From NCBI GenBank assembly GCA_026390815.1, contig JAPLFH010000032.1, positions 56,904 to 120,903 on the forward strand: a stretch of 64,000 bases of DNA, written 5' to 3'. Below the pieces are notes generated by a model, which worked only from the letters and a program-made list of their open reading frames with translations, searched no databases and had not been told where the DNA came from. Shown here one piece after another: positions 1,131-29,325 of the stretch. Source of the stretch: Ignavibacteriales bacterium. Lineage in GTDB: Bacteria; Bacteroidota; Ignavibacteria; Ignavibacteriales; SURF-24. How positions within the stretch are numbered: the first letter of the stretch is position 1; each line of letters opens with the position of its first letter. The position numbers and the translations under genes were made by a program.

Positions 1131-4100
1131 TCACCTGGACGAGTTCTAATGTGAATAATATTAAGATTGAGTACACAACAAACAATGGAACAAGCTGGAA
1201 TACAATCATTGCAAGTGTGGTAGCAACTCCTGCAAGCTACAATTGGGTAATCCCGAATTCTCCATCAACAAACTGCAAAGTAAGAATAAGCGATGCCGGC
1301 AATTCAACTATAAACGATCTCAGTAATAATGTGTTTACGATAACTGCACAACCGACAATTACTATGACAATTGGAAACGTAACTGCGGTAGTTGGTGACA
1401 CAATCCTGGTTCCAATTACTGTATCAAATTTTAATAATATTGGAGCGATTTCTTTAAAGATACAATATAATTCAACAGTACTTACATTTAGTGGTGTGGA
1501 AAACCAGCCAACAACCGGAAACTTTGCAGTTAATGCTTCCAATGGGTTTATTACAATCGGGTGGTTTAATACTACTCCTCTCAATCTGGGAAATTCAAAA
1601 CTCCTAGATCTGAAATTCCATTATAATGGAGGTATTAGTAATCTAAATTTCATTACCACTGAATGTGAAATTGCAAATGTACATGCCCAAACTTTTTTAG
1701 TTGAATACTATAATGGTTCTGTTTCGCAAATATTTAAAGAATTAATAGTAACAAGTCCAAATGGGGGTGGGAGCTGGCAGATTGGTTCTCAGCAGAATAT
1801 TTTATGGACGAGTTCTAATGTGAATAATGTGAAGATTGAATACACAACCAACAATGGATCAACCTGGATCTCGATAATAAATTCAGTTCCGGCTGCTTCA
1901 GGTACTTATACGTGGACAATCCCCAACACTCCATCTACAACCTGTAAGGTTAGAGTAAGTGATGCTGCGGATGCGACGGTAAATGATGTTAGCGATAATC
2001 TATTTAGTATTCCGGCATCAACATCAATTACTGTTATCTCACCAAATGGTGGAGAAAACTGGCTGGCAGGAACAGTTCATAATATAACATGGACAAGCAG
2101 CAACGTGAACAATATTAGGTTATATTGTTCAACTAACGGCGGTGGAAACTGGACATATATAGGAAACACTCCGGCAAATACCGGAAGTTTTAGCTGGACG
2201 ATTCAATCCGCTTCAAGCTCATTAAGTCCTTCGGCTAATTGCAGAATAAAAGCAGCTGATGACGCTAACCTGAGTACCTTTGACATTAGTAATTCAGATT
2301 TTACAATAAGCAAACTGGAGCAGACTATTCCGAATGGTGGTGAAAATTGGGCTGCTGGAACTTCACAAAGTATTCACTGGCTTTATGCATATACGGATTT
2401 TAATAATGTAAAGCTTGAATACACAACAAACAACGGTAGCAATTGGAATGTAATAATTGGCAGTACACCTATATCTGTAAACTCTTATAACTGGACTGTC
2501 CCGAACAATCCTTCTACTCAATGCAGGGTAAGAATAAGTAATCCCGCAAATCCATCACAAAAAGATTCAAGCAATAATGTCTTTACCATATCTTCGCTTA
2601 CTCTTACTTCCCCAAATGGAAGTGAATCATGGAAAGTTGGAACATCACAAAACATTACCTGGAATAGTTCTAACATAGCGAATGTAAAATTAGAATATTC
2701 TACTAACAGCGGTTCAACCTGGATTATAATAATTGCAAGTAACCCTTCAGTACTTGGAAGTTATTCCTGGACGGTACCCATTACGCCATCAACTAATTGC
2801 AAAGTAAGAATTAGTGATGTTTCCAATTCTTCTTATAATGATCTAAGTGATAATACCTTTACAATCTACCAGCCATCAATTGCTTTAACCTCTCCAAATG
2901 GAGGTGAACTTTGGCTTGTTGGTACAACAAAAAACATCACCTGGACAAGCAGCTATATCAGCAATGTTATATTGGATTACTCTAAAGATAATGGTATAAC
3001 ATGGACTAACATCATTAGTAGCGTGCCCGCTTCACCTTCAAATTACCAGTGGACTTTACCAAACATAAATTCAAATATGTGTCTTGTTAGAATAAGCGAT
3101 GCTGGGAATTCTTTAATTTCTGATACTAGCAATAATGTCTTTTCGATTTCAGCACTTCTTGTTACTTTTCCAAACGGTGGTGAAAAATTACAAGCCGGCA
3201 AAACCAAAAATATTTCCTGGTTGAGCACAAATATTGGTTGGTTAAATATCTACTATTCAATAGACGATGCCTTGAACTGGAATTCAGTAGCGTTTAATAA
3301 ACCATCCAGTTCAGGTAGTTTCACCTGGAACATACCAAATACACCATCTGTAAAGTGCAGAGTAAAAATTAAAAATCCGGCTGGGTCTATAACTGATTCC
3401 AGCGATAGAGTTTTCACTATAACTTCATTACAGGTAAGCGCACCCAATGGTGGAGAGAATATAAAACCGGGGGCTGACTTTGCTATTACATGGCAAAGTA
3501 AAAATATCCGGGATGTTAAACTTGAATATACTTCAGACAACGGTGCGCATTGGCAACTTATAGTTGATAAGACCAATTCTGGCGCAGATGGAGGCGGCTT
3601 TGTTTGGCAGGTACCTTCAACTGTAAGTGGTAATTGTAAAATAAAAGTTACGGATAAAGAGGATGATAATATAACAGATGAGAGTGATGCGGTATTTAAT
3701 ATAACACTCAGCAAATTTATCTCTACGGTTGTTCCAACAGGAACTGAAAGATGGTATATAGGAAATACATACCAGATTAAATGGTACAGCATTAATATCC
3801 CCAAGGTAAATATTGAATTTACATCCGATAACGGTGTTAAGTGGGAAAAAATAGTTGATAATATTAATGCTTCTGATCAATTATTTAATTGGAAAATTGA
3901 AGTTACCGTGGAAGGTGAATATAGGATAAGAGTAAGGGACTACAGTGATACTTCTGTTGTTACCGTTAGTCCAAAATTCCGTATAATATTTGTTCCTGAA
4001 ATAGTACTTAGTACTCCTAACGGGGGTGAACACCTTGAAGCAGGTAATGACTTTACAATTAAGTGGACTTCGAGAAATATATCCAGAATTAAAATTCAAT

Positions 4101-7066
4101 CCAGAATAAATAATTATACTGAAACAATTGAGAATTCATACCCGGCAGAGTTAGGTTCTTATGTATGGACAGTACCAATTGAAAATTCAACAAATTGCAA
4201 AATAATCTTAACCGATCTTTATGATGCTGATTTTAAGGATATGAGTAGCAACAGCTTTTCTATTTATGTTCCTCCTTTGAAATTGACATATCCAAATGGC
4301 GGAGAAAATTTTCAAATAGGTACTGAATGTAACATTAAATGGGTTGGTTTGAAAGATCTTGGAAAAGTAGATTTACATTATTCCTTAGATAATGGTTCAA
4401 CTTGGAGTTTAATTGGAACTGCAGATGTAAAAGATTACATATTTAGCTGGAGAGTACCAGATAACCTTTCTAATAACTGTAAGGTTAAAATAGTAGCCAA
4501 GAACCAAAGAAACATTTATGATATTAGCGATGGAATTTTTGCAATCAGTGATTATAGAATAATGGATTGGTATTGGTTAGAGACCGGAACAAATAAAAAC
4601 CTTAATGGTGTTTACTTTGTAAATGATCAAAATGGTTTTATCGTTGGTAATAACGGATTAATCTTATCAACAGCAACTGGCGGTCGTAACTGGAATGTTG
4701 TTTCTTCAGGTGTTACAAATAATCTGAATTCAATTCAATTTATTAATTCTTCTGTGGGATGGATAATTGGTGCCGGCGGGAAAATTCTTAAAACGTCCAA
4801 CAGCGGACTGAACTGGATAACACAAGTATCAGGAGTAACATCAACTTTATTAAGTAACAGTTTTATTAACGAACAGGTGGGTTATGTATGTGGGATAGGT
4901 GGAACAATTCTAAGAACAACAAACGGTGGAAATAACTGGATTCAACAAACTACAGGGATTACTAATAATATTAATTCAATTCATTTTTTTGCCGCAGATA
5001 TAGGCTGGGCAGCGTGTGATAATGGTAAAATTTTAAAAACCACTGATGGAGGCAATACCTGGGTGCAGGAAAATTCTGGAGTAACAGAAAATATAAAATC
5101 AGTTTTCTTTGTTGATGAGAGAAATGGATTTGCCGGAGTTAACCAGAGAGTGAATTTTCTTCTTAAGACAACTGATGGCGGCAATGTCTGGTCAGCTTAT
5201 AACAATCCAACTGTTTACAACTTCAACCAACTTAGATCGATGTATTTTACAAATACAACTACCGGTTGGATTCTAACTGACGATAGATTATTAAAAACTA
5301 CAGATGGTGGTTCAACATTTGAGCAGAGTTATTTCAATCCGACATTTAACTCATTTATGATGTTAAATCCTGGTCTTATTTGGGTAGTTGGTGATGGAGG
5401 AAAGCTATGCAAATATAATTACTTTTATTTTAAATTTACGGCACCTGTAGCAGGAAATAAATATCAATATGGAAATGTATGCACAATTACGTGGGAAAGT
5501 AGTCCTGATTTTGTGGTTCAAGGATTAACGGCTTATAAAGGCGAACAGTTCCTAACAACAATTGGATCAAATGAAAATATGCAAAATGGTTATTTTAATT
5601 GGAATATATCCCCTGGTACCAGTACCAATATTTTAGGCAATAATATCAGGATACAAATTCGTACACATCAACCAGTTTTACACTTAGCTTTTGAGCTGTT
5701 TAGTGATCCGTTCACAGTTAGTATACTACCTTCCTCAACAACATGGGAGCAATTGTTTGGTTTTGATAAATTCGATCATTTTACAGACAGTTATTTTATA
5801 AATGAAAATTTGGGATGGGTAACGACTTATTTTACTAAAGTTTTTAAAACAACTAATGGTGGTTTTAATTGGACTTTTAATAGACTTGTTCCCGAAGATT
5901 ATCCACTTGGGGTATGGTGGTCAAAAACGGTCTGGTTTGTAGATGAGAATAATGGCTTTGTAGGGGGAGGAGGAAGTATAGATAATAATAGAAGTTGTGG
6001 TAGAGGATTTTATGGTAAAACAACAAACGGTGGAAACAGTTGGGATGCAGATTACACAGCAACTTATATATGTGGAGGATATAATGAAGGCTATATAGAA
6101 GATGTGTTTTTTAATGATGCTCTTAATGGTTGGCAAGTTGGGGATGGAATATTAAAACATACAACAGATGGTGGTAACAATTGGCAAAATTATATTTATG
6201 TTTATGACGAATACTATGCTGTTCATAGCCCGGAACCTTCTACTGCATATGCAATAAGATATAGGTGGGATTTTGAATTGGATAAAGGTTTTTGGGAGAT
6301 TGTTAAAACTTCTGATTATGGAAATACTTGGCCTGGTTGGCCAGATAATCCGATCTTTAGATATGATAAACGGTTAAACTCCATATGGTTTATAAATCAA
6401 AACGTTGGCTGGGTAGTAGGGGATAATGGTAAAATTCTAAAAACAATTGATGGAGGAAAAAATTGGGTGTTTCAAAATAGTGGAACTGATCTTCCGCTTC
6501 TTAAGGTAAAATTTGTTAATAGCAGAAAGGGATATATTGTGGGTGGCTATAGCAATTATGAAAATGTGGGTGAAAATGAAAAAGGTATTATTTTAACAAC
6601 CAATACTGCGGGTGAAAAGTGGACTGTGCAAGTTGGAAATATAATGAGATGCTTAAATGATATTTCAATAATTAATGAAAATACTATTTATGTTGTTGGA
6701 GACTTCGGGACCATACTTAAAACAACTAGCGGCGGTGAATTTAGAGTTGATAGTAAAGCAACTGTAATAGACAGCCTATTGCCCGGCTCTTTTAATCTTT
6801 CTCAAAACTATCCCAATCCTTTCAATCCCTCTACAACAATAAATTATGCATTACCAAATGATAGCAGAGTTGAGTTACGTATTTTTAATGTTATTGGAGA
6901 ACAGGTGGCTGAACTTGTAAATGAAGTTCAGCCTGCGGGTTATTACAGAAAGCAATGGATTGCGGAAAATTTATCAAGCGGGATTTATTTATTAAGAATT
7001 GATGCAAAAGCTATTGCTTCCGAAGAAAGATTTGTGAAAACTATGAAAATGATTTTCCTGAAATGA
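1..7066 (+). CDS. Giant secreted repeat protein (5' end outside window) with T9SS C-terminal sorting domain. It has more than 25 tandem ~95-aa beta-sandwich repeats, then a Ycf48/BNR-like beta-propeller region (nt ~4560-6720), then a Por_Secre_tail.
   Basis: Reading frame is open from nt 2; the ORF caller's GTG at 86 is internal. The repeat motif recurs as PNGGENW.VGT..NITW...NVKLEYTT.NG..W..I.....A..Y.W.IPN.PS.NCKVRISD. The middle region has repeated G.ILKTTDGG.TW / TTNGGNNW beta-propeller blades. The C-terminus LSQNYPNPFNPSTTINY...IFLK is the canonical T9SS C-terminal domain. Confidence 0.8.
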   Translation, partial: TWTSSNVTNVKLEYTTNNGTNWNTIIASVAAIPASYNWVIPNAPSTNCKVRISDAGDATVNDLSDNTFTISQKSINLTSPNGGENWRVGTQHNITWTKSGFTYVKVEYTTDNGTSWIVIDPSVDATLGMSWTVPNTPSANCKVRVSDAGDATVIDLSDNIFTIYQPAVTVTSPNGGENWLVGTNQNITWTSSNVTNVKLEYTTNNGTNWNTIIASVAAIPASYNWVIPNAPSANCKVRISDAGDATVNDLSDNTFTISQKSITLTSPNGGENWRVGTQHNITWTKSGFIYVKVEYTTDNGTSWIVIDPSVDATLGMSWTVPNTPSANCKVRISDAGDATVNDVSDGLFTISTLPVPVIALTSPNGGENWLVGTNQNITWTSSNVNNIKIEYTTNNGTSWNTIIASVVATPASYNWVIPNSPSTNCKVRISDAGNSTINDLSNNVFTITAQPTITMTIGNVTAVVGDTILVPITVSNFNNIGAISLKIQYNSTVLTFSGVENQPTTGNFAVNASNGFITIGWFNTTPLNLGNSKLLDLKFHYNGGISNLNFITTECEIANVHAQTFLVEYYNGSVSQIFKELIVTSPNGGGSWQIGSQQNILWTSSNVNNVKIEYTTNNGSTWISIINSVPAASGTYTWTIPNTPSTTCKVRVSDAADATVNDVSDNLFSIPASTSITVISPNGGENWLAGTVHNITWTSSNVNNIRLYCSTNGGGNWTYIGNTPANTGSFSWTIQSASSSLSPSANCRIKAADDANLSTFDISNSDFTISKLEQTIPNGGENWAAGTSQSIHWLYAYTDFNNVKLEYTTNNGSNWNVIIGSTPISVNSYNWTVPNNPSTQCRVRISNPANPSQKDSSNNVFTISSLTLTSPNGSESWKVGTSQNITWNSSNIANVKLEYSTNSGSTWIIIIASNPSVLGSYSWTVPITPSTNCKVRISDVSNSSYNDLSDNTFTIYQPSIALTSPNGGELWLVGTTKNITWTSSYISNVILDYSKDNGITWTNIISSVPASPSNYQWTLPNINSNMCLVRISDAGNSLISDTSNNVFSISALLVTFPNGGEKLQAGKTKNISWLSTNIGWLNIYYSIDDALNWNSVAFNKPSSSGSFTWNIPNTPSVKCRVKIKNPAGSITDSSDRVFTITSLQVSAPNGGENIKPGADFAITWQSKNIRDVKLEYTSDNGAHWQLIVDKTNSGADGGGFVWQVPSTVSGNCKIKVTDKEDDNITDESDAVFNITLSKFISTVVPTGTERWYIGNTYQIKWYSINIPKVNIEFTSDNGVKWEKIVDNINASDQLFNWKIEVTVEGEYRIRVRDYSDTSVVTVSPKFRIIFVPEIVLSTPNGGEHLEAGNDFTIKWTSRNISRIKIQSRINNYTETIENSYPAELGSYVWTVPIENSTNCKIILTDLYDADFKDMSSNSFSIYVPPLKLTYPNGGENFQIGTECNIKWVGLKDLGKVDLHYSLDNGSTWSLIGTADVKDYIFSWRVPDNLSNNCKVKIVAKNQRNIYDISDGIFAISDYRIMDWYWLETGTNKNLNGVYFVNDQNGFIVGNNGLILSTATGGRNWNVVSSGVTNNLNSIQFINSSVGWIIGAGGKILKTSNSGLNWITQVSGVTSTLLSNSFINEQVGYVCGIGGTILRTTNGGNNWIQQTTGITNNINSIHFFAADIGWAACDNGKILKTTDGGNTWVQENSGVTENIKSVFFVDERNGFAGVNQRVNFLLKTTDGGNVWSAYNNPTVYNFNQLRSMYFTNTTTGWILTDDRLLKTTDGGSTFEQSYFNPTFNSFMMLNPGLIWVVGDGGKLCKYNYFYFKFTAPVAGNKYQYGNVCTITWESSPDFVVQGLTAYKGEQFLTTIGSNENMQNGYFNWNISPGTSTNILGNNIRIQIRTHQPVLHLAFELFSDPFTVSILPSSTTWEQLFGFDKFDHFTDSYFINENLGWVTTYFTKVFKTTNGGFNWTFNRLVPEDYPLGVWWSKTVWFVDENNGFVGGGGSIDNNRSCGRGFYGKTTNGGNSWDADYTATYICGGYNEGYIEDVFFNDALNGWQVGDGILKHTTDGGNNWQNYIYVYDEYYAVHSPEPSTAYAIRYRWDFELDKGFWEIVKTSDYGNTWPGWPDNPIFRYDKRLNSIWFINQNVGWVVGDNGKILKTIDGGKNWVFQNSGTDLPLLKVKFVNSRKGYIVGGYSNYENVGENEKGIILTTNTAGEKWTVQVGNIMRCLNDISIINENTIYVVGDFGTILKTTSGGEFRVDSKATVIDSLLPGSFNLSQNYPNPFNPSTTINYALPNDSRVELRIFNVIGEQVAELVNEVQPAGYYRKQWIAENLSSGIYLLRIDAKAIASEERFVKTMKMIFLK

Positions 7067-7087: not shown

Positions 7088-7123
7088 GCGGCATGCCGCA
7101 ATGGTTGATCCCGCTAGCGGGAT
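7088..7123. terminator. Two adjacent perfect palindromes 3' of the giant gene: gcggcatgccgc at 7088-7099 and atcccgctagcgggat at 7108-7123. Likely terminator or REP-like element; the 16-bp palindrome recurs at 37477-37492.
   Basis: Perfect dyad symmetry read directly. The second copy also lies immediately 3' of a gene (GH20-like, minus strand). Confidence 0.5.
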
Positions 7124-13724: not shown

Positions 13725-14264
13725 TTATAAAGCAAAGAGGAAGCCTACGGTGATGACATAAAAATTGCTGCTAATGTCATTGCTGCCCGGGAGTTGATTA
13801 AAATCATAATTCAGAAAGACGTAACGAATGTCTGCCGTCAGTTTGATTGAACCGACTGGCAATTCCAGACCACCACCAAAATGCCAGCCAACTTTTTGTG
13901 TTGTTTCGTCTTTAAGAAGCGGTAACTTGCTTTGATCATAATCCAAAGTAGTGTTGTACCAGCCCATTCCCATAGCACCATATACAATTGGGAGCGGATA
14001 AATTAAACCGGTTATCATCACGGGCCAACTACGAACCGTTAAGAGACCGTCCCCATATTTTTCCTGTCGATAATTAATGGATGCTTCTACACCAAGAATT
14101 GGTATCAATTTCGCGCGCAAGGCTACTCCCCCAGTATAATTACTTCTATCGGAATCCATAGTTTTAAAATAGCCGACCTGGGGACCCAGACTTACGCTCT
14201 GTGCATTCACCTGAGCAACCATCAATGCGGTAAGCCCTATTATCAGCAAAGTTTTCTTCCACAT
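13725..14264 (-). CDS. Small outer-membrane beta-barrel protein (OmpW/OmpA-beta-barrel-like, 179 aa).
   Basis: Signal peptide MWKKTLLIIGLTALMVAQVNAQS. Alternating amphipathic beta-strand pattern. Hydrophobic C-terminal strand. Confidence 0.55.
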   Translation of the reverse strand: MWKKTLLIIGLTALMVAQVNAQSVSLGPQVGYFKTMDSDRSNYTGGVALRAKLIPILGVEASINYRQEKYGDGLLTVRSWPVMITGLIYPLPIVYGAMGMGWYNTTLDYDQSKLPLLKDETTQKVGWHFGGGLELPVGSIKLTADIRYVFLNYDFNQLPGSNDISSNFYVITVGFLFAL

Positions 14265-14467
14265 ATATTAATCTCCTTTAAATGAATGAACGATGTATTT
14301 TATAAAAAAAACTAATGCATTACAAACATAAAAACAATCATCCAAAGGGATGAAAAAGGGATTGGTTCTTTTAACTTCCACCAAGGTATTCCAAGCAAAG
14401 AGTAATCGAACCTCTGAGGAACAAAAACGACAACCTGCAAAAAAAATGGTTGATGGTTGGCTGTTGA

Positions 14468-14489
14468 CCTGCCTGCCGGCAAAGGCAGG
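14468..14489. repeat. GC-rich palindromic element CCTGCCTGCCGGCAAAGGCAGG. The identical 22-mer occurs in inverse orientation at 29304-29325, and a variant at 16405-16427.
   Basis: Exact reverse-complement match read from the sequence. It sits in an AT-rich intergenic region. Confidence 0.7.
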
Positions 14490-14677
14490 TGGAAGATGTA
14501 GAAAATTATTTATGACAACCAAATGGCTTGCATTAGTCCTTTCATTATAATCTTACTATCACTTAGAATTTCACTATCTCTTTCAAGATGTATATCTGTA
14601 AGAATCTTTATTTTCTTCTTTATTCCCTTTCCTTTCCTTTTTATCTATTTTTAGGCAACCGATCAGGAGTTTTGCGG

Positions 14678-17600
14678 ATGTCATTCGAAAATGCTTTTAT
14701 AACAGTATCCAATCTTGTTAATGATTTTAAGGAAAACAAAAAAGTTTATTTAAGCACAAGCTATTCCGAAGCTGATGTACGAAATGATTTTATCAATAAG
14801 TTTTTTATTGCGCTTGGCTGGGATGTAAGACACGATGAGCAAAAAAATCCTTATGAGCAGGAAGTAAGAGTTGAAAAACCTGTGCAGGTTGCTAAAGCAC
14901 AAAAGCGCGCCGATTATACTTTTTACCTTTCCCCAAATTACCGCGATGTTAAATTTTTTGTTGAAGCTAAAAAACCTTATCACGATCTTGAGAATAAAGA
15001 TTACTTTTTTCAAACCGTACGTTATGGATGGAATGCAAACACTCCTGTTGCATTGCTTACCGATTTTGAAGAGTTTATAATCCTTGATTGCCGCTTTAGA
15101 CCAGACATAAATGAAATACTTAACTACAAAATAAAAAGCTTTACCTTTGATGATTATGCAAATGAAGAAAAGTTCAAAGAAATTTATTTCCTCTTTTCGC
15201 GTGAAGCTGTTGCAGACAATTCTATTGAAAAGTTTACCGAAGCATTACCAAAACCAAAGGGAAAGAAAAAAGCATTAGTAAAAGAATCCTACCAGAAAAT
15301 TGATGAAGCATTTTTAACTGAGCTTGATGCGATAAGAACAACGCTTGCAAAATCATTTAAAAAAAATAATGCCCATCTTACAAGTGAAGAGCTAACCGAG
15401 GCAACACAGCGGACTATTGACCGGCTTGTGTTTATTAAATTTCTTGAAGATAAAATGATTGAACCGCACCACTATGTAAGCGAGTTTGTAAAACCTCACC
15501 CTGTTTCCCTCTCCTTACAAAGGAGAGGGACTAAGGGAGAGGTCGGACTTGTTGATAAAGTTGAAAGCAATAAACAAGAGTTAAGTGCATGGGAAAAGTT
15601 TTTACGCGCAAGCCGTACTCTTGATGCAAAGTATAATGGCGTTGTTTTTAAGAAGAGCTTAATTGATTCCCGTAATATTGTTGAGCCGGAAGATAAAACA
15701 TTCTCCTCTATCTGTGAAGGATTATCCTACGATAACACGCCTTATAACTTTGATGCAATTCCGATACATATTCTCGGTTCCATTTATGAAAGATTTCTTG
15801 GCAAGGTTGTTAATGCAACCGATAAACGTGTAACGATTGATGAAAAACCGGAAGTAAGAAAAGCCGGCGGAGTTTATTACACGCCGCAGTACATTGTTAA
15901 TTATATAGTTGATAACACAATTGTAAAACTGATTGCGGGAGACCGTCCCTTTGGGAAAGGCAAAACTCCAAAGGAAATTGCAAAAATGCGTTTTGCAGAT
16001 ATTGCCTGTGGAAGCGGTTCCTTTTTAATTACTGTTTATGAAAGAATACTTGATTACCACAAACGCTGGTACTTAGAGAATCCTGAGCAGGCAAAGAAAG
16101 ACGGCTGCATTTTATTTGAAGGTGCTTACCGTTTATCCCTGCAGCAGAAGCAGAAAATACTTACCAACAATATTTACGGAGTTGATTTAGACCAGCAGGC
16201 AGTTGAAGTAACACAGCTTTCCCTTTATTTAAAATTACTTGAAGATGAAACCACAGCGACAGCAAACGATACCTGGGTGATGTTTAAAGAACAGATTTTA
16301 CCGGATCTGAATAAAAACATTATTTGCGGCAACTCGCTTATTGGAACAGATATTTTGAACCCCACCTTAATCCTCCCCTTTAGTAAAGGGGAGGAAACAG
16401 GAGGGCCTGCCTGTCCGGTAGGCAGGGTTAATGAACTGAAGCTTAAGCCTATGGATTTTGAGAATGTATTTCCGCATATCTTTAAAAGCTCCCCTTTGGG
16501 GGGAGTTGAGGGGGCTGGTGGCTTTGATGCGGTTGTAGGAAATCCACCATATCTGTACTCAGCTGGAAAAAGATTTAGTGAATATTTCAAAACGCATTTT
16601 AAGTTCAATCAATATCAAACTGATTATTATGTTTACTTCATAGAAAGGGCACTATCATTAATTAAAAACAAAGGAAAATTTTCATATATAATATCAGATT
16701 CATGGCTTAATTCAGATTACTTTAAAAAAATGAGAGATGAATTATTATTAAAACATAAGATTGAGAAATTAATAGTCTTTGATTATCCTGTATTTCAAAA
16801 TGTTACTCTAGAAAATTCAATTATAATAATTTCAGTCAATGAGAAACCTTCATCATTTGATATTATAAGATTTAACTCCCCACAGAAATATATCATTGCC
16901 AATAACTTAGCACCTAATGATGCTTATGCTGAAGGAATAATTAAACCCAATAAGTCAACTATTACAGATTATTTAATTAATAAAATTGAAAATGATTCTA
17001 AACCTTTGTCTCATTTTTGTAAAATAAACAGAGGAATTCATGCATATAGGACGGACGGTTATGGAAAATCGAAATTTGGTGGTGGGCACCAAACAAAGAA
17101 AGATAAAGAATTACAATCATATCATTCTGACAAACCTATCGATAAAACATATTTACCAGAGATAAAAGGGAAAGATGTATTTAAATATTCTTTTAATTAT
17201 TCAGGTAAGTATCTTTCATATGGTGATTGGTTAGCAGAACCAAGAACTCCTGAGTATTTTATGAATCCAAAAGTTGTTCTAAGAAAGATTTTAGGAGATA
17301 AAATAATTGGTACATTTATAAGCGAACCGTTAGCAATTGATCAGTCTCTTTATATTTTAATAGTAGAGAAAAATGAAGAGGCCGTATTAAAAACTTTTCT
17401 CGGTTTATTGTCTTCACGTTTAGCCGCTTGGTATCTGAAAAATAAATACTCAATCTTTGATACTCTTTATCCTTGGTTTACAATTAAACAATTATCTACA
17501 TTCCCGACAAAAATAATTGATAATAAACTTCACTCTCTTGCCGATCAAATGCTCACCACAAAAAAGCAACTCCAGCAAGCCAAAACAGAAAGCGATATAA

Positions 17601-17716
17601 ATTATCTTCAACGTAAATGCGAAACCATAGACCGGCAAATAGATCAGCTCGTTTACGGGCTTTACGGCTTAACCGAAGAAGAAATAAAAATTGTAGAAGG
17701 AGCAAGCAACCCATAG
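14678..17716 (+). CDS. Type IIG restriction-modification enzyme (MmeI/Eco57I-like fused PD-ExK endonuclease and gamma-class N6-adenine DNA methyltransferase). It is solitary, with no BREX partner genes.
   Basis: RBS aggag lies 8 nt before the ATG at 14678; the ORF-track start at 14588 is probably too far upstream. The N-terminal nuclease motif reads ...RADYTFY...VKFFVEAKKP (D...EAK). Methyltransferase motif I is DIACGSGSFLIT. Motif IV is FDAVVGNPPYLYS. The protein length of about 1010 aa fits the MmeI family. Confidence 0.75.
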   Translation: MSFENAFITVSNLVNDFKENKKVYLSTSYSEADVRNDFINKFFIALGWDVRHDEQKNPYEQEVRVEKPVQVAKAQKRADYTFYLSPNYRDVKFFVEAKKPYHDLENKDYFFQTVRYGWNANTPVALLTDFEEFIILDCRFRPDINEILNYKIKSFTFDDYANEEKFKEIYFLFSREAVADNSIEKFTEALPKPKGKKKALVKESYQKIDEAFLTELDAIRTTLAKSFKKNNAHLTSEELTEATQRTIDRLVFIKFLEDKMIEPHHYVSEFVKPHPVSLSLQRRGTKGEVGLVDKVESNKQELSAWEKFLRASRTLDAKYNGVVFKKSLIDSRNIVEPEDKTFSSICEGLSYDNTPYNFDAIPIHILGSIYERFLGKVVNATDKRVTIDEKPEVRKAGGVYYTPQYIVNYIVDNTIVKLIAGDRPFGKGKTPKEIAKMRFADIACGSGSFLITVYERILDYHKRWYLENPEQAKKDGCILFEGAYRLSLQQKQKILTNNIYGVDLDQQAVEVTQLSLYLKLLEDETTATANDTWVMFKEQILPDLNKNIICGNSLIGTDILNPTLILPFSKGEETGGPACPVGRVNELKLKPMDFENVFPHIFKSSPLGGVEGAGGFDAVVGNPPYLYSAGKRFSEYFKTHFKFNQYQTDYYVYFIERALSLIKNKGKFSYIISDSWLNSDYFKKMRDELLLKHKIEKLIVFDYPVFQNVTLENSIIIISVNEKPSSFDIIRFNSPQKYIIANNLAPNDAYAEGIIKPNKSTITDYLINKIENDSKPLSHFCKINRGIHAYRTDGYGKSKFGGGHQTKKDKELQSYHSDKPIDKTYLPEIKGKDVFKYSFNYSGKYLSYGDWLAEPRTPEYFMNPKVVLRKILGDKIIGTFISEPLAIDQSLYILIVEKNEEAVLKTFLGLLSSRLAAWYLKNKYSIFDTLYPWFTIKQLSTFPTKIIDNKLHSLADQMLTTKKQLQQAKTESDINYLQRKCETIDRQIDQLVYGLYGLTEEEIKIVEGASNP
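15507..15530. repeat. In-frame GC-rich hairpin insertion (tccctctcc-ttacaa-aggagaggga) inside the Type IIG gene, followed by a partial third arm (gggagagg).
   Basis: 9-bp perfect stem. It encodes ...PVSLSLQRRGTKGEVGL... Confidence 0.6.
16372..16427. repeat. Two adjacent in-frame GC-rich hairpins inside the Type IIG gene: cctccccttt-agt-aaaggggagg (16372-16394) and ccctgcctgtccggtaggcaggg (16405-16427, a variant of the 14468 element).
   Basis: 10-bp and 8-bp perfect stems. They encode ...LILPFSKGEETGGPACPVGRVNE... The GC content is sharply higher than the surrounding gene. Confidence 0.65.
16489..16505. repeat. Third in-frame GC-rich hairpin (ctcccc-tttg-gggggag) about 10 codons before the NPPY motif.
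   Basis: Encodes KSSPLGGVEGAGG immediately before FDAVVGNPPY. Confidence 0.5.
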
Positions 17717-17753
17717 CTTCAGCTATGGGGATAAGAATACAACACATAACCAG
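17621..17753. repeat. Direct repeat copy 1 (~133 bp), the 3' end of the Type IIG gene. A near-identical copy 2 lies at 17988-18112.
   Basis: About 97% identity over roughly 125 bp. Copy 2 encodes ...IDRQIDQLVYGLYGLTEEEIKIVEGENNP*. Confidence 0.85.
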
Positions 17754-17987
17754 AGAATCTTTGTGGAAATAGAAAATTTTGGCAGCCCACGAATTTATTC
17801 GTGGGAACTTAGATAAAAGACAAAACAAAAAACCGATTCATCGGTTTGAAGGAGGAATCAGATTTGTTTATTAAAAAATACGGGTTGAAATTATAAACCC
17901 CGCCTACCGGCTGGCGGGCGTTAAAACGGTTATAAAAATTATTTTATTTTCCCACGGTTAAAACCGTGGGCTGTATAAAATAAAACA
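17754..17987. other. 234-bp hairpin-dense segment between the two direct repeats. Contains cccacgaa-ttta-ttcgtggg, aaaccgat-tc-atcggttt, ccgcc-taccggctg-gcggg and cccacgg-ttaaaa-ccgtggg. Possible inserted element or structured RNA.
   Basis: Four perfect stems of 7-8 bp in 234 bp, bounded by the 125-bp duplication. Confidence 0.4.
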
Positions 17988-18112
17988 CGAAACCATAGAC
18001 CGGCAAATAGATCAGCTCGTTTACGGGCTTTACGGCTTAACCGAAGAAGAAATAAAAATTGTAGAAGGAGAAAACAACCCATAGCTTCAGCTATGGGGAT
18101 AAGAACACAACC
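17988..18112. repeat. Direct repeat copy 2 (duplicate of the Type IIG gene 3' end).
   Basis: See 17621..17753. Confidence 0.85.
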
Positions 18113-18362
18113 AATCAGGATTATAATCTCTTCACTTATTCACTTTCCTTCCGATAATAAACTGGAAATATTATATTAGTTTGCAAAGCGGGTTTAAAGA
18201 GTAATCCTTTATAATGCAAACAAAACAGTTTCTACATGTTCTGCTTCTGCAAATTCAAATGGAAAAGAAGTTGTAAAAGTTAGATACTGTTGACAATAAC
18301 CTTTCTGAGCTTACCGATTAATTTGGAATATAAATATGTATAAAATGAAAGGAGATAGAATA

Positions 18363-19400
18363 ATGAAAGTAAAAAAAAATGCAATTGTATTTATGGCACT
18401 TTTATTCAGTTTAGCTTTTACAGCATGCACAAATAAACAAGGAGTAACCGATTATTCAAATCAAGAACAAGCGTTAACCGATTATTCAACACCTGAGCAT
18501 TGGTTATCTTTACATTATTCGGCTGTAAAAGAAGTAGATATTTTTTACCTTTATCCAACTTCGTGGCAAAAAATTGATTCAACGGAGTCAAACATTTGTG
18601 CAATCAATAATCCTTTAATGCTAAAATATTCAAGATATGCATTTGAAAGACAAGCTACTGCTTTTGAAACCGTTGGGAATATTTACGCACCATATTACAG
18701 ACAAATGGATGTTGCTTCCCGCGCCTTTATGACCACAGAAGAACAAGAAAAGTTTGTGGCTGGAATACCAACGTTAGATGCTATAGCAGCTTTTGATTAT
18801 TATATTAAACATTACAACAATGGACGCCCGTTTATTTTAGCCGGACATTCACAGGGTGCAAATATCCTTGCAAATATATTATCAGGATACTTGAAAGATA
18901 ATCAACAGGTTTACTCAAGAATGATTGCTGCTTATGTTATTGGATATTCAATTACAGGTGAATATCTTAACAAAAATCCGCATTTAAAATTTGCTGAAGG
19001 TCCTGATGATATAGGAGTGATAATTTCATATAACACTGAAGCTCCTGAAGTTGTTAAAGGAACCAACCCCGTTACATTGCCAGGCGGTATTGCCATAAAT
19101 CCAATTACCTGGACAAGGGAAGAAACATTAGCAACTGCCGATAAAAATTTAGGATCCATAATATTAAATAAAGATGGTTCTGTAGCAGCTGGAATACCTA
19201 TACCAGTAATGAACTATGCGGACGCCCGTATTGATAAGAATAAAGGAGTAGTTATTTGCAGTACTGCTGATGTATCAAAATTATCCCCCGGTACCGCCGG
19301 ATATGTTAGAGGTGTTTATCATAGTTTTGATTTCCCATTTTACTATTACAATATCAGAGAAAATGCAGCCAACAGAACAAAAAAATTCTTAAACAAATGA
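18363..19400 (+). CDS. Lipoprotein with alpha/beta-hydrolase fold (GHSQG nucleophile-elbow motif; DUF3089-like esterase/lipase family).
   Basis: RBS aaaggag lies 7 nt before the ATG at 18363 (MKVKK). The ORF-track start at 18336 is probably too early. Lipobox ...LAFTAC. GHSQGANILANIL matches the G-x-S-x-G motif. Confidence 0.6.
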   Translation: MKVKKNAIVFMALLFSLAFTACTNKQGVTDYSNQEQALTDYSTPEHWLSLHYSAVKEVDIFYLYPTSWQKIDSTESNICAINNPLMLKYSRYAFERQATAFETVGNIYAPYYRQMDVASRAFMTTEEQEKFVAGIPTLDAIAAFDYYIKHYNNGRPFILAGHSQGANILANILSGYLKDNQQVYSRMIAAYVIGYSITGEYLNKNPHLKFAEGPDDIGVIISYNTEAPEVVKGTNPVTLPGGIAINPITWTREETLATADKNLGSIILNKDGSVAAGIPIPVMNYADARIDKNKGVVICSTADVSKLSPGTAGYVRGVYHSFDFPFYYYNIRENAANRTKKFLNK

Positions 19401-20240: not shown

Positions 20241-23200
20241 ATGAAAAAGTATATTTCCATTACTCTGTCCACTTTTGTTCTGATTCTGTTATTAGGAACA
20301 AAAGTTTTTGCAATATCTAAAACAACTTCACAATCAGGCAATTGGAGTGCATCATCCACGTGGGGTGGCAACCCTTCTCCTGTAGCTGGTGATGATATAA
20401 TTATAGATGGCGGATTCACTGTAACAGTGGATATTCCCGATGCAGTTTGTTTAAGCATTCAACTCGGCGGTTCTGCACTTGGTCTTGGAACCGGAACACT
20501 TTTATTTACTGGTGGATCTCAGGTAACAGTATCAGGCGCTGTTTCAATTGGACCATTTAACAACAACAACACCGCAGGCAGTGTAATTATGTCTAATGGT
20601 GGTACACTTATTTGCGAGGGATTTATTGTAGGTAGGTTAGGAACTTGGACGCCTGGAACGGGAACCATTGAGTTGACGGCTACCAATACAATTCCTAATA
20701 ATAACAATATTATATTTAACAATCTTACAATAAGTAGCGGTATAACCACGCTCTCCCATAACGTAGATGTAAATGGTAACCTGTTAATCAATACAAGCGC
20801 AACGCTTAATGGTGGAGCTAATACATTAACGGTGGGAGGTGACTGGACGAACGATGGTTCATACGCTGGAAACACTGGTACTGTTACATTTAAAAAAACT
20901 GGTAATCCAACTATCTCAGGTACCGGAATAAACAATTTCAACCTCATAAGGGTAAACCTCGGTACAAGTATTAATAATACGCTGGAGGTATTGTCGTCAC
21001 ACTTTAATGCTCCTGATGGGTTTCTAACTCTTACTAATGGGACGTTCAAAATGTCCGGAACATTCACATTTACAAACACATTTCTTGTTGGACCAAGCTA
21101 TAATATTCAACCAACATCCGGGTTATGGATCAACAATCCGAATGTAACTGTAGTTGCTCAGGCTGGTGGAATCTCTTTAAGAGGATTGTTAAGAATTTCT
21201 GCAGGAACATATAACATCGGAACAGGTATAGACAACTCTCTTACATATGTTACAGGTTCATCTATCATTATCGAAGGTGGATCACTTCACATTGCAGGTC
21301 GGTTAAATGGAAATAATTCAACCGCTACCACTACCTATAATCAAAGCGATGGGGTGGTATCTGTCGTAGAACAGGGTTCCACTGATCCAGTATTTGCTGG
21401 TTTTGATCTTAGTGTTGTAGGCTCTTCATTTACAATGGCTGGTGGTAATATAATCTTGAGAAATGCAACAAGTGCCCCAACAGATTACCTTAATAATTCA
21501 TCAGTCGCGATTGTTACCGGAGGTACACTTCAGATAGGTGATGCAGGTAGTTTAAATGCCCAGGTTATACGCATTCAGAGCCCTCGTCCAATTGGCAATC
21601 TTCTTGTCTTCAATGCAACAGCACAACTTGTTAGTTCAAGTATTAGCGTTGTTAACAATGTTACTGTACAAACAGGAAGAACACTCAATGCAAATGGATT
21701 CAATATATCGTTGGGCGGAGATTGGTTTAACATCGGTACATTCATAGCCGGTGGCAATACCGTAACGTTCAATGGATCTGTAGCTCAAACACTAACTAAC
21801 CCCAGTGGAGAGCAACTCAACAACCTCACAATCAATAAAACAGCAGACACCCTAACACTGAAAAATTCCATAACAGTCAATAATACATTTAACCTTGCCC
21901 AAGGTACAATTGAAGTAGGCAACCATACTTTAACACTTAACAATACTGTAAATGGAGCTGGAACACTGATAAGTGCAGGCATTGGTATTGTCAACTATAA
22001 TCAGGGCAGTCCAGGGCAAAACATTCTTGCAGCCAACTATGGTAACCTTGTATTCAGCAACTTCATTAAGACACTTGCACCATCGGGTATAATTAGTATT
22101 TCAGGAACGTTTACACCAGGATCTTTAAGTGGGCACACGGTTACGGGCAGTACGCTGAACTTTAATGGAAGTTCTCAAGATATCCCGGCTTTCATTTACA
22201 ACAATCTTATTATTAGTGGTAGTGGTATAAATACAGGCTCCGGAACTATTACAGTTGGTGGAAACCTGACTATCAACTCTGGGGTCACTTTCTCCGGTAC
22301 ATCTACACTTAATCTCAATGGTTCAGTTCACACAAATGATGGTACACTAATTACTTCAACGCTCTCAGTTGGACCTGGTGCTGTATTTACAAACAATGGA
22401 ACTACTTCAGTCAGCTTAGCGCTAAATGGAGCCGGCACACTTACACAAGGATCTGCCGGAATACTTAACATTGGTGGTACAGTTGGAATTAACACTCTTA
22501 ATGCTTCATCCTCTGGTAGCTCCATAAATTACACTGGTAATGGACAGACAATTGTTCCTGTAGTTTACTACAACCTAACACTTTCTGGATCGGGAACACC
22601 TATTCTTACTGGATTAAACACAATAATTGGAAATTTCACTCTCTTGGGTAGTGTAACTCCCGTAGCTGCAACGGGAATAACCATGGGTGGAAATTTTTCA
22701 ATTAACTCCGGGACGTCGTTCGATGCAGGTAGTTTCTCTCACTCACTTGCAGGCAACTTTAACAGCTCAGGAACATTCATCGCAGGTACCAGCACATTTA
22801 CTTTGAGTGGTACGAGTGCCCAGACTATTAGTGGATCTACATTTTATAATCTGTCAATTGCTAACTCTTCAGGTGTAACAATCACAAGTGATGAAACCGT
22901 AAACAATACACTCTCACTTGTTAATGGTTCCATATCTATTGGGGCTCACACGCTCAACCTCAATGGATCTCTTTCATTCGGAACGGGCTCACTGGTTGGT
23001 GGTTCATCTTCAAATATAGCAATTGGCGGTTCTGGCACCAGTACAATTCTGCCAACCATTACTTTGAACAATCTCTCACTTAATCGAAGCAGCGGTAGTT
23101 CATTAACCGGAGATATTACAATTAATGGAAATCTAACAATCGCCAACGGCACTTTAACAACGAATGACCATATCATCACTCTTGCACAAAGTGGAATTCT

Positions 23201-24857
23201 TTCTGAAGTTGCCGGACAACCGGTTATTGGCAATATCAGCACGACTCGGAATATCACTGCAACATCCGGCATAGAATCTTTTGGGAATATTGGAGCTGAC
23301 ATAGTGTTGAACGGTATTGCACTTGGTAATACGACAGTCTTAAGGAAAACCGGCATAACATCTACTGGAAATGGACACAACTCAATCAAGCGGTCTTTCG
23401 AAATTGTTCCAGCTACCAACACCGGATTAAATGCAGGTTTAATATTTCATTTCGATTCAACTGAATTGAATGGGCAAAATTCCAGTGCACTTGAACTTTA
23501 TATGTCTAGAGACAATGGGACTACATGGAATAATAATGGAGGAACCGTAGATTTATTGTTAAACGCTATTAGCATAACAGGAGTTAATGATTTTTCTCAC
23601 TGGACTGCCTCGGATACGACTAATCGAATTGGCAATACTCCTACTCCTGCAACGTTCTCCATCAACCCGGCAGCAGCAACCATTGGCGATCCAGGTTTTA
23701 GTATAACGGTTAATGGTGTAAATTTCGTCAATGGCAAATCCGTCATTCGGTTTAATAGTAATAATAAGACAACAACGTTTATAAGCAGCACACAATTAGT
23801 TGCATCAATTCCTACAAGTGATCTTCAAATCGCAGGAACATTTCCAGTAACGGTCTTTAATATTGATGGTGGTGGATTATCTAATTTGCAACCATTCACA
23901 GTAGCTTCTCTGCCACCTACAAAGATTAGTGTGGAAACACTTGCAGATGGATCAGGAATAATTGTTCCTCCACAGGCACTGCCATCAGGGTCATCAATCA
24001 CAGTTTATGCTATTTCAAGAGACGCTTTAAACCACTTTGTTGCAAATGTAGCAGCCGATGAATGGGCTCTGGAAAACATTTCGGGTGGTGTTGTATTATC
24101 TGATCTGGTACCATCTCCTGATAAAAAAAATGCTGTGTTATCGGGGCATTTGATTGGTGCTGCCACTATAAAATCCACTTCCGGTCCATTGGTTACAATT
24201 CCATCGGGGACAGTAACAGTTACGCAAGGTACAGTGGCTAAAATAAGAGTTGAGACTGCTGCAGATGGCTCTGGGGTGGTGGTTCCCGCAGATACATTGA
24301 TCTCAGGATCTTCAATAACTGTTTACTCAATTGCAAGAGATAGCTTTGACAATTTTATTGAAAATGTTGCCGCTGATGCATGGAGCCTCGAGAATATCAA
24401 TGGTGGTATTGTTGCTTCCGATCTGGTTGCTGCAATTAATGGAAGGAGCGCAGAATTCAATAGCCATTCTTCAGGCAGCGCTAACATAAAGGCAACATCT
24501 GGGGCTTTAACTATTATTACGTCTGGTACAATCTCCGTCGTACAACCTACAGGAATAGAAAAAGGAGAACAACCCATCTCATTTGCGTTGATGCAGAACT
24601 ATCCAAATCCATTTAATCCATCTACAACTATAAAATATGCATTACCAAACGAAAGCAAAGTTGTGTTATACATTTACAATATTTTTGGCGAACAGGTTGC
24701 GGAGCTTGTAAATGAAATTCAACCAGCTGGTTATTACAATAAAAAGTGGTCAGCAGAAAATTTATCAAGCGGAATTTACCTTGTTAGAATAAATGCGAAA
24801 GCAATTGGTAAAGAAGAAAATTATAATAAGATTATAAAGATGCAGCTTGTAAAGTAA
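20241..24857 (+). CDS. Giant secreted beta-helix/adhesin-like protein (1538 aa) with two tandem Big/IPT-like domain pairs and a T9SS C-terminal sorting domain.
   Basis: Signal peptide present. The body is Gly/Thr/Asn-rich with about 20-residue pseudo-repeats (GG.LT.N..GT..., NGS). ...ADGSG..VP......SGSSITVY.I.RD...NF..NVAAD.W.LENI.GG... is duplicated. C-terminus MQNYPNPFNPSTTIKY...KMQLVK. Confidence 0.75.
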   Translation: MKKYISITLSTFVLILLLGTKVFAISKTTSQSGNWSASSTWGGNPSPVAGDDIIIDGGFTVTVDIPDAVCLSIQLGGSALGLGTGTLLFTGGSQVTVSGAVSIGPFNNNNTAGSVIMSNGGTLICEGFIVGRLGTWTPGTGTIELTATNTIPNNNNIIFNNLTISSGITTLSHNVDVNGNLLINTSATLNGGANTLTVGGDWTNDGSYAGNTGTVTFKKTGNPTISGTGINNFNLIRVNLGTSINNTLEVLSSHFNAPDGFLTLTNGTFKMSGTFTFTNTFLVGPSYNIQPTSGLWINNPNVTVVAQAGGISLRGLLRISAGTYNIGTGIDNSLTYVTGSSIIIEGGSLHIAGRLNGNNSTATTTYNQSDGVVSVVEQGSTDPVFAGFDLSVVGSSFTMAGGNIILRNATSAPTDYLNNSSVAIVTGGTLQIGDAGSLNAQVIRIQSPRPIGNLLVFNATAQLVSSSISVVNNVTVQTGRTLNANGFNISLGGDWFNIGTFIAGGNTVTFNGSVAQTLTNPSGEQLNNLTINKTADTLTLKNSITVNNTFNLAQGTIEVGNHTLTLNNTVNGAGTLISAGIGIVNYNQGSPGQNILAANYGNLVFSNFIKTLAPSGIISISGTFTPGSLSGHTVTGSTLNFNGSSQDIPAFIYNNLIISGSGINTGSGTITVGGNLTINSGVTFSGTSTLNLNGSVHTNDGTLITSTLSVGPGAVFTNNGTTSVSLALNGAGTLTQGSAGILNIGGTVGINTLNASSSGSSINYTGNGQTIVPVVYYNLTLSGSGTPILTGLNTIIGNFTLLGSVTPVAATGITMGGNFSINSGTSFDAGSFSHSLAGNFNSSGTFIAGTSTFTLSGTSAQTISGSTFYNLSIANSSGVTITSDETVNNTLSLVNGSISIGAHTLNLNGSLSFGTGSLVGGSSSNIAIGGSGTSTILPTITLNNLSLNRSSGSSLTGDITINGNLTIANGTLTTNDHIITLAQSGILSEVAGQPVIGNISTTRNITATSGIESFGNIGADIVLNGIALGNTTVLRKTGITSTGNGHNSIKRSFEIVPATNTGLNAGLIFHFDSTELNGQNSSALELYMSRDNGTTWNNNGGTVDLLLNAISITGVNDFSHWTASDTTNRIGNTPTPATFSINPAAATIGDPGFSITVNGVNFVNGKSVIRFNSNNKTTTFISSTQLVASIPTSDLQIAGTFPVTVFNIDGGGLSNLQPFTVASLPPTKISVETLADGSGIIVPPQALPSGSSITVYAISRDALNHFVANVAADEWALENISGGVVLSDLVPSPDKKNAVLSGHLIGAATIKSTSGPLVTIPSGTVTVTQGTVAKIRVETAADGSGVVVPADTLISGSSITVYSIARDSFDNFIENVAADAWSLENINGGIVASDLVAAINGRSAEFNSHSSGSANIKATSGALTIITSGTISVVQPTGIEKGEQPISFALMQNYPNPFNPSTTIKYALPNESKVVLYIYNIFGEQVAELVNEIQPAGYYNKKWSAENLSSGIYLVRINAKAIGKEENYNKIIKMQLVK

Positions 24858-24879
24858 TTTATAATGAAGAATGGATAAT

Positions 24880-24911
24880 GTATAATGAGGATGAGTTTTT
24901 CCTCATTATAC
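24880..24911. terminator. Bidirectional terminator hairpin gtataatgagg-atgagttttt-cctcattatac between convergent genes. The same element recurs at 47735-47770.
   Basis: 11-13-bp perfect stem with a T-rich loop and flank. Both flanking genes end here. Confidence 0.65.
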
Positions 24912-24949
24912 ATTGCTAATTATAAATTATACATTCACCGTAAAATCGA

Positions 24950-29238: not shown

Positions 29239-29303
29239 AAAATTGATTTGATAATATATTTAAACCCACGAATGAATAAGTGGTCTGCTTTTCCCATCAA
29301 CTA

Positions 29304-29325
29304 CCTGCCTTTGCCGGCAGGCAGG
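29304..29325. repeat. GC-rich palindromic element cctgcctttgccggcaggcagg, the reverse complement of the 14468 element, immediately 3' of the fusion gene.
   Basis: Exact 22-bp inverse match. Confidence 0.7.

Follow-up and report, generated by a model that had tools for sequence, protein, structure and literature searches.

The window analysed here, a 64,000-nucleotide (64-kb) stretch of contig JAPLFH010000032.1 from an Ignavibacteriales bacterium, carries a Type IIG restriction-modification gene in which several short GC-rich hairpins lie in frame; most likely, short, non-autonomous palindromic repeat elements have inserted into this gene five times, and the hairpins form the cores of these insertions. 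The encoded protein is 100% identical to a homologue (P0001) from an Ignavibacteriales metagenome-assembled genome (MAG), and it matches the Pfam families Eco57I (1.8e-35), N6_Mtase, MmeI_Mtase and TaqI_C, with matches to the nuclease N-termini HSDR_N and HSDR_N_2 below the curated Pfam cut-off. Residues D79, E96 and K98, as well as N622, P623 and P624 of the NPPY motif, are invariant in an alignment of 30 homologues, and the protein is predicted to be a single-chain Type IIG (MmeI/Eco57I-like) enzyme in which an N-terminal PD-(D/E)XK nuclease is combined with a gamma-class N6-adenine methyltransferase and, at the C-terminus, a specificity domain. The gene and the elements within it are as follows (nt, nucleotides; bp, base pairs).

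14678 to 17716, forward strand: Type IIG restriction-modification gene, host of the insertions; uninterrupted open reading frame (ORF), 1012 amino acids.
15488 to 15586, forward strand: indel of site 1; 33 codons, against 5 (GKRRS-like) in empty homologues; 99-nt fold of -37.6 kcal/mol.
15493 to 15543, forward strand: 51-nt double-stem palindrome of site 1, ACCTCACCCT-GTT-TCCCTCTCCTT-ACA-AAGGAGAGGGA-CTA-AGGGAGAGGT.
15506 to 15530: hairpin of site 1, TCCCTCTCCTT-ACA-AAGGAGAGGGA, 11-bp stem.
15935 to 15964, forward strand: insert of site 4, AGDRPFGKGK against DGK or EGK; 7 extra codons, weak hairpin; absent from the original prediction.
16358 to 16405, forward strand: 48-nt double-stem palindrome of site 2, AACCCCACCTTAA-TCCTCCCCTTT-AGT-AAAGGGGAGGA-AACA-GGAGGG.
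16371 to 16395: hairpin of site 2, TCCTCCCCTTT-AGT-AAAGGGGAGGA, 11-bp stem.
16406 to 16426, forward strand: 21-nt palindrome CCTGCCTGTCCGGTAGGCAGG, directly 3' of the 48-nt element; as a hairpin of the CCTGCC family, CCTGCCT-GTCCGGT-AGGCAGG, 7-bp stem.
16487 to 16516, forward strand: 30-nt element of site 3, AGCTCCCC-TTTGG-GGGGAG-TTGA-GGGGGCT, encoding SSPLGGVEGAG.
16489 to 16505: hairpin of site 3, CTCCCC-TTTGG-GGGGAG, 6-bp stem.

The original prediction had drawn attention to four hairpins in this gene that keep its reading frame, and all four were found where it placed them, within an ORF that runs unbroken through 1012 codons. Counting perfect hairpins whose stem reaches 6 bp and 66% GC, the window has 23, and 20 first-order Markov shuffles gave an expectation of 4.35 per 64 kb, or about 0.2 per 3 kb, against the four in this gene. 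No other local fold in the window is as stable as the segments at sites 1 and 2 (-26.5 and -26.2 kcal/mol in a 50-nt folding scan), and folding of the segments between conserved protein anchors placed an outer stem around each inner hairpin. In the double-stem units of sites 1, 2 and 3, the left half is rich in pyrimidines and the right half in purines. The inserts are 51, 48, 21 and 30 nt long, all multiples of three, and have 42-60% GC inside a gene of 35% GC. The NPPY codons lie at 16541-16552 and the last hairpin ends 12 codons earlier, close to the ten or so codons first estimated. Site 4, with its weak hairpin, probably holds a palindromic insertion that has decayed.

The elements fall into two kinds. 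The first is a double-stem superfamily with the order outer-left arm, inner-left arm, loop, inner-right arm and outer-right arm, in which the typical arms CCTCACCC and GGGTGAGG enclose CCCTCTCCTT-N3-AAGGAGAGGG. The second is a perfect palindrome of 20-21 nt, CCTGCCTGCCGG(C/T)AGGCAGG.

The best 120 protein matches, from a family of roughly 8000 homologues, were scored by anchor motifs, 30 homologues were aligned, and the DNA of 13 homologues was retrieved for comparison of the elements. The original interpretation of the segments as insertions is supported: most or many homologues lack each one, and the alignment shows them to be indels:

Site 1, after HYVSEF: empty form of 5 residues (GKRRS-like); empty in 90 of 104 homologues, filled in 14 with 18-52 residues.
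Site 2, after GNSLIGTDI: empty form of 13 residues; empty in 33 of 90, filled in 57.
Site 3, before GGFDAxVGNPPY: empty form of 6 residues; empty in 83 of 100, filled in 17.
Site 4: empty form of 3 residues; empty in 71 of 78, filled in 7.

Empty alleles are uniform in length at each site (5, 13, 6 and 3 amino acids, respectively) and filled alleles are variable, with at least five element types among the 57 homologues that are filled at site 2. The Verrucomicrobia homologue P0062 and a basal clade are without inserts, at sites 1 and 2 in all four of them; P0062 is also empty at site 4 in the alignment, and the basal member P0053 has an unrelated 56-residue insert at site 3. Related elements are present in other homologues: P0013 (locus L002) has a counterpart of the 48-nt element at site 2 with identical stems and a different loop; P0005 and P0100 carry a site-3 insert near-identical to that of the window; P0047 has the site-3 architecture at site 2 (TCCCTCCC-TTT-GGGAGGGA-CTGA-GGGAGGGG); and site 4 of other alleles contains LPADRSAGKAG-type, CCTGCC-like inserts. 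On a neighbour-joining tree built from the conserved N-terminal core in 80 homologues, Fitch parsimony gave 35 changes of element type and 13 filled/empty changes at site 2, and nine filled/empty changes at site 1. This count is rough because the tree is simple and recombination would inflate it, yet, as reconstructed, it rules out a single inherited linker.

A palindrome of another sort occupies site 2 of P0120 (locus L128, 1665-1684), where GTAGAGACGAGGC-AC-GCCTCGTCTTTAC has, at the DNA level, the GTAG...TTAC 'double-foot' form of repetitive extragenic palindromes (REPs). Five other homologues have the matching VET...SLQ peptide at site 2, seen as peptide only; a similar peptide of either the VET...SLQ or the VEM...SLQ form is encoded at this site, again at the peptide level, in six homologues (P0091, P0104, P0108, P0112, P0114 and P0116). 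Judged from the L128 palindrome and these peptides, REPs of the type moved by REP-associated tyrosine transposases (RAYTs) may also be active in these organisms. Truncation of P0119 at site 3 by an element was considered and rejected, a 1-nt deletion in a T/C run, possibly a long-read error, being responsible instead. At locus L277 (5660-5690), loss of 1 nt from a T/C run shortly ahead of site 3 divides a homologue into two ORFs; this is either a pseudogene or a long-read homopolymer error, and the element is not the cause.

The retrieved DNA indicates what is being copied. One hairpin, CCCTCTCCTT-N3-AAGGAGAGGG, is read at site 2 in three frames, as PSPYQGEG (L126), PLLGKERG (L003 and L127) and PLSLLRRG (L280), and at site 1 of the window it is read as SLSLQRRG; the apparent peptide families PSPxxGEG, PLLxKER and LSLxRRG are therefore the three frames of one palindrome. 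The 51-mer of site 1 in the window recurs at site 2 of L126 and L277 with one loop base changed and in another frame, encoding DLTLFPSPYQGEGLRERF there and PHPVSLSLQRRGTKGEV in the window. At the level of sequence comparison, these cases show the inserts to be palindromic repeats of DNA and not conserved peptides. This contradicts the suggestion that selection acted on the peptides, i.e., that flexible Gly/Pro/Glu-rich linkers arose by convergence and the palindromy is a by-product. The peptides are loop-like and fall in low-confidence coil regions of the predicted protein, as that suggestion would have it, but a linker can be encoded without perfect 11-bp stems and the same DNA is present outside genes, and we regard peptide selection as hardly credible.

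Pairs of alleles further show how the elements accumulate. The cleanest empty/filled pair is L126 and L125: at site 2, L125 has exactly 21 nt of the CCTGCC family (CCTGCCTGACCGGCAGGCAGG) more than L126. This addition separates the stem of the inner hairpin from its loop and is not accompanied by a target duplication; the remainder of the element is identical at 66 of 69 positions, and identity is 79% over the 300 nt upstream and 51% at third codon positions. The window likewise exceeds L002 by 21 nt, the palindrome at 16406-16426 being the part that is missing in L002. At site 1, 30 nt are gained from the window to L003 and a further 24 nt to L004, giving one, two and three inner hairpins, respectively, inside one outer stem, and L280 has an inner hairpin and the right arm only, after an intact EDLF. 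From this series it follows that insertion goes hairpin by hairpin and that composites accrete. As far as allele comparison can establish it, these pairs show copying as DNA, in one clean case without target duplication and sometimes into or beside existing hairpins.

The elements recur outside the gene. Three related hairpins lie elsewhere in the window:

14467 to 14490, no strand: intergenic CCTGCC palindrome ACCTGCCTGCCGGCAAAGGCAGGT, between an ORF that ends at 14264 and the gene start at 14678.
17899 to 17918, no strand: downstream of the gene, a CCTGCC-like hairpin in which changes in the stem are compensated, CCCGCC-TACCGGCT-GGCGGG.
29303 to 29326, no strand: second intergenic CCTGCC copy, the exact reverse complement of 14467-14490.

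The copy at 29303-29326 is flanked by two minus-strand genes, a large ORF (29336-34990) and a 259-residue ORF (28459-29238). The genic copy at 16406 shares CCTGCCTG..CCGG..AGGCAGG with both intergenic copies, in agreement with the earlier view that it is a variant of the element near 14468 and 29304. The broader expectation that the hairpins recur elsewhere held within the 64-kb window for the CCTGCC family and failed there for the hairpins with pyrimidine- and purine-rich arms, none of which lies outside the gene; recurrence of families other than CCTGCC was demonstrated in genomes other than the source.

An exact-pattern scan for the inner 23-mer, with one genome per species, returned at least 120 genome stretches, where about 0.5 matches would be expected by chance for a 20-base pattern in 596 Gb of uniform sequence. 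Among the 80 loci listed, about 40 belong to Nostocales and other cyanobacteria, 14 to the Candidate Phyla Radiation (Patescibacteria), 5 to Armatimonadota, 4 to Chloroflexi and 8 to Bacteroidota/Ignavibacteria; four are unclassified bacterial MAGs, and single matches, which for MAGs may reflect binning errors, come from Bathyarchaeia, Bdellovibrionales, Leptospirales, Desulfobacterales and a gammaproteobacterium. The CCCTCTCC hairpin usually has CCTCACCC to its left, GGGTGAGG to its right or both, and a second hairpin, which is variable, often intervenes; exact CCTCACC / GGTGAGG was found in 34 of 48 scored outer stems; thus the arms are conserved in sequence, beyond pairing alone. Only 22 of 101 copies of this hairpin lie in open frames of at least 200 codons, compared with 71% of random positions, and 79 lie outside; the 22 genic copies use the three frames 6, 8 and 8 times. 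Phage contigs in IMG/VR contributed 28 stretches that match the hairpin. One of the contigs from that database (L130, 7283 nt), which by inspection of its ORFs reads as a Mu-like phage contig, holds five copies of the CCCTCTCC hairpin, in frame in an apparent terminase gene, a head-morphogenesis gene and a small ORF.

The CCTGCC palindrome, with the consensus CCTGCCTGCCGG(C/T)AGGCAGG, was found in at least 120 metagenome stretches on contigs of 30-71% GC. Copies are nested in themselves in L218, L219, L226 and L228 and in the loop of another hairpin in L125, and 9% of copies have a perfect flanking stem of 6 bp or more, compared with 0.9% in permuted controls. In the window, no palindromic inserts of the studied families were detected in three very large ORFs (86-7066, 20241-24857 and 29336-34990; 2326, 1538 and 1884 amino acids, respectively). 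Palindromes of other kinds are also present there: AATGTATAATGAGGA-N8-TCCTCATTATACATT, a long hairpin that is rich in AT and has a stem of roughly 15 bp, occurs in two copies (24871-24920 and 47726-47775), and short GC-rich hairpins occur as ATCCCGCTAGCGGGAT, twice identically, and TCCCGCTAAGCGGGA, once (7108-7123, 37477-37492 and 60784-60798), the latter group possibly representing terminators or another small repeat family. Intrinsic terminators were considered for the elements themselves and dropped, as a T-run follows the right arm only in some copies. A conceivable connection of the AAGGAG in the hairpin with a Type IIG recognition site is no more than speculative.

In the alignment of the gene family, the N-terminal ~620 residues and the final ~60 residues are highly conserved, and the middle, comprising the second half of the methyltransferase and the specificity domain, is hypervariable, an arrangement in the aligned sequences that suggests cassette swapping. 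The last 129 nt of the gene (17615-17743) are duplicated downstream at 17983-18111 with an identity of 124/129; the duplicated segment includes a hairpin, CCCATAGCTTCAGCTATGGG, that overlaps the stop codon, and the ~240 nt between the copies contain three further GC-rich hairpins (17786, 17899 and 17951). This duplication may be the scar of a specificity-cassette exchange or of an insertion. Hairpins are also found at the 3' end of related genes. The closest homologue, P0002, is without inserts at the four internal sites, and a hairpin at L001 3445-3469 (CCCTTCTCCTT-CAT-AAGGAGAAGGG) overlaps the 3' end of its gene and encodes its last codons (PHPNPSPS) and stop; family-A hairpins lie directly past the stop codon in L003 (13022) and L125 (8044 and 8079). 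Among the loci compared (L003, L125, L278 and L280), three Ignavibacterium-like contigs have the restriction gene in the same slot after a polyphosphate kinase gene, and a DUF559 (Vsr-like) gene lies 3' of the restriction gene in L003 and L125, and also in L280, which is not in the polyphosphate-kinase slot.

An AlphaFold2 model built from the 30-sequence alignment (mean predicted local distance difference test, pLDDT, of 69; predicted template modelling score, pTM, of 0.46) places the insert sites, residues 273-300, 423-426, 552-592 and 605-613, in coil with pLDDT <50. Residues 52-104 and 180-206 are further low-confidence stretches. The model fits, though not strongly, a location of the inserts in surface loops or inter-domain linkers. 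A search by sequence for a close solved structure gave only distant BREX (bacteriophage exclusion) PglX-type methyltransferases over 76 residues, and the loops are therefore not mappable onto a structure.

The alternative that survives best is that the hairpins are kept for a benefit at the DNA or RNA level, for example by slowing translation at domain boundaries, by stabilizing or attenuating the mRNA so as to limit a toxic enzyme, or by serving as GC-rich recombination landing pads for the specificity region. Such a role would be consistent with stems that match perfectly across alleles in which identity at the flanking third codon positions is only 51-62%, with elements that lie between predicted domains (site 3, 12 codons before NPPY, is at the transition from conserved to hypervariable sequence), with a roughly five-fold enrichment of hairpins in the gene family over its flanks, and with the past cassette recombination to which the 129-nt duplicate of the gene's 3' end points. 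However, the genes are intact although site 2 is empty in 33 of 90 homologues and site 1 in 90 of 104; element type, frame and number vary freely among close alleles; in unrelated phyla and in phages these sequences lie mostly between genes; and perfect stems are equally explained by arm-to-arm template switching or recent copying. We consider a role of this kind unlikely.

It is very improbable that the segments are ancestral linkers that were deleted in most homologues. Filled alleles at sites 1 and 2 do also differ from empty ones in a few neighbouring codons, so that the boundaries are not always clean, but P0062 and the basal clade are without palindromic inserts at the scored sites, the empty length is uniform where filled alleles range from 18 to 52 residues at site 1, the inserts have 42-60% GC in a 35% GC gene, the same 51-mer occupies two different sites, and identical hairpins are intergenic repeats in other phyla. 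An artefact of assembly or sequencing can practically be dismissed: the source is a MAG and the 1-nt frameshift of L277 is of the homopolymer type typical of long-read error, but equivalent inserts are present in independent NCBI, JGI, ENA and Logan assemblies and in finished cyanobacterial chromosomes.

Repeated insertion of small palindromic elements into this gene has precedents. The small dispersed repeats (SDRs) of Nostocaceae, hairpins of 21-27 nt that are often nested, were reportedly described by Elhai and colleagues in 2008 as the smallest mobile elements. Compared by description, the 20-21-nt CCTGCC palindrome resembles them in nesting in itself and in other hairpins. SDRs are confined to Nostocaceae (PMC5861425), one cyanobacterial subgroup, whereas the families of the window occur in Ignavibacteria and many other groups. 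Rickettsia palindromic elements (RPEs; Ogata et al. 2000), as summarized in PMC10969869 and PMC3733652, are palindromic repeats found in frame in unrelated, functional-looking genes, where they are translated, and also between genes. The original prediction compared the window elements with these, and the comparison holds for behaviour, i.e., a palindromic repeat in frame in an otherwise intact gene, and not for membership of the family: RPEs are ~100-150 bp long, restricted to Rickettsia and end in CGTC, whereas the window elements are 21-51 nt long, differ in sequence, occur in many phyla and are stacked inside one another. By description, it is length and end that set RPEs apart, and CGTC is missing from all four window elements.

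Like REPs, which are GC-rich imperfect palindromes of 20-40 nt, the elements are repeated, mostly intergenic and in a minority of cases inside genes. Intragenic REPs with GTAG or CGTC tags are thought to be moved by RAYTs (Di Nocera et al. 2013, PMC3733652; Quentin et al. 2018, PMC6006769). They are inserted in genes of several species without breaking the frame, singly, doubly or in clusters, and two Xanthomonas species have different REPs at roughly one position of recB (PMC3733652); the tnpA-REP genes of cyanobacteria and Bacteroidetes also contain REPs in frame (PMC6006769). The 'double-foot' REP at site 2 of L128 is a direct likeness. The four window elements, in contrast, have no GT[AG]G or CGTC foot: GTAG is confined to the T-variant of the CCTGCC palindrome, at its loop-stem junction, and the C-variant, which is commoner, does not have it. 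The CCTCACC / GGTGAGG arms, moreover, keep their sequence across phyla, while a REP family is usually limited to one species or genus. Miniature inverted-repeat transposable elements differ in having terminal inverted repeats with a target-site duplication and a typical length of 70-400 bp, against 21-51 nt here and no duplication in the L125/L126 pair. In fungal mitochondria, GC clusters and double-hairpin elements have spread in an AT-rich genome and occasionally stand in frame in genes. These clusters are organellar, eukaryotic and without sequence relation to the window elements, and serve as an analogy only.

Rfam 15 gave nothing relevant at E<=1 in window positions 14000-18500 and only one tRNA at gathering score in 16 element-bearing loci. 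BLAST of the consensus element against annotated phages and plasmids gave one weak unannotated match each, in a search limited by the short query and the low-complexity filter. The element sequences, used as text strings in a search of the available literature, led to no relevant paper, and three 12-nt CCTGCC strings had no occurrence in the papers listed by that search. In-frame palindromic repeats are thus a known phenomenon of which this gene is a clear new case; conservation across phyla together with hairpin-by-hairpin accretion may be undescribed.

Inside genes, the copies that survive would be those that are a multiple of three long, free of stops and situated in a tolerant loop. They would be translated as flexible loop peptides rich in Gly, Pro, Glu and Arg from which the enzyme needs nothing, and read-through of a filled allele would yield peptides spanning SLSLQRRGTKGEV or PFSKGEETGGPACPVGRV. 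An existing palindrome may favour further palindromic insertions, which would explain why different elements occupy the same four loops across alleles. Arms conserved across phyla would imply a conserved partner acting in trans, and, given that the elements are hairpins and that target duplication is lacking, an HUH/Y1 transposase acting on single-stranded DNA is suggested. We tentatively propose, as a possibility well short of probable, that the elements are moved in trans by an enzyme that recognizes folded single-stranded DNA, such as an HUH/Y1 transposase of the RAYT or IS200/IS605 type. A wider proposal, to be held with similar reserve and perhaps doubtful, is that the CCTCACC/CCCTCTCC double-stem elements and the CCTGCC palindromes are undescribed, very small mobile elements that insert into or beside hairpins, are conserved over at least eight bacterial phyla and phage contigs, and are moved by horizontally spread machinery that recognizes folded DNA.

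Several observations weigh against insertion by mobile palindromes or against the proposed agent. No HUH- or RAYT-like ORF was found by motif regular expressions in the window and the 120 element-bearing loci, a weak test since RAYTs are single-copy and these loci do not cover whole genomes; no neighbouring gene was recurrent across the 120 genome loci, where all-against-all BLAST of 1429 ORFs gave common families only (ABC ATPases, kinases, TPR proteins, P-type ATPases and glycosyltransferases, named by reading representative sequences and not by profile search); and the elements are without the GTAG or CGTC tag of described REPs. The k-mers of the pyrimidine- and purine-rich arms were not found outside the gene within the window. 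Stems are 96% conserved, compared with 79% for neighbouring codons and 51% for third positions, and selection on structure could account for this; gene conversion among alleles might look like transposition; recombination would scramble the neighbour-joining tree, which is rough in any case; and the quality of the AlphaFold model is moderate (mean pLDDT 69). In addition, the gene family has 0.67 hairpins per kb (nine genes) as against 0.125 per kb in 128 kb of flanks, where no hairpin was found within any other gene, a difference that neutral insertion with selective filtering does not obviously explain. Enrichment in the gene family and conservation of the stems leave some room for a structural or recombinational role.

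Insertion of palindromic DNA into this gene has several consequences. The loops PSPxxGEG, PLLxKERGxGEV, LSLxRRG, PFxKGE, PLGGxEGG and LPxxxAG are read-through of repeat DNA and not conserved protein motifs, and homology and structure pipelines should mask such loops. The alleles amount to a natural insertion scan in which 7-47 extra residues are tolerated at four loops of a Type IIG enzyme, including the loop that lies 12 codons ahead of the catalytic NPPY, and this map of tolerant loops is useful for engineering MmeI-like enzymes. The empty/filled allele pairs provide base-exact insertion junctions for elements of 21-51 nt, which could guide a search across genomes for the mobilising gene and thereby help to show whether such small elements are truly mobile. 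Across many alleles, they document with unusual clarity how tiny palindromic elements enter a gene. If the elements are indeed mobile in the way proposed, the loops of this restriction gene family would preserve a natural history of how they inserted one after another, nested and turned over.

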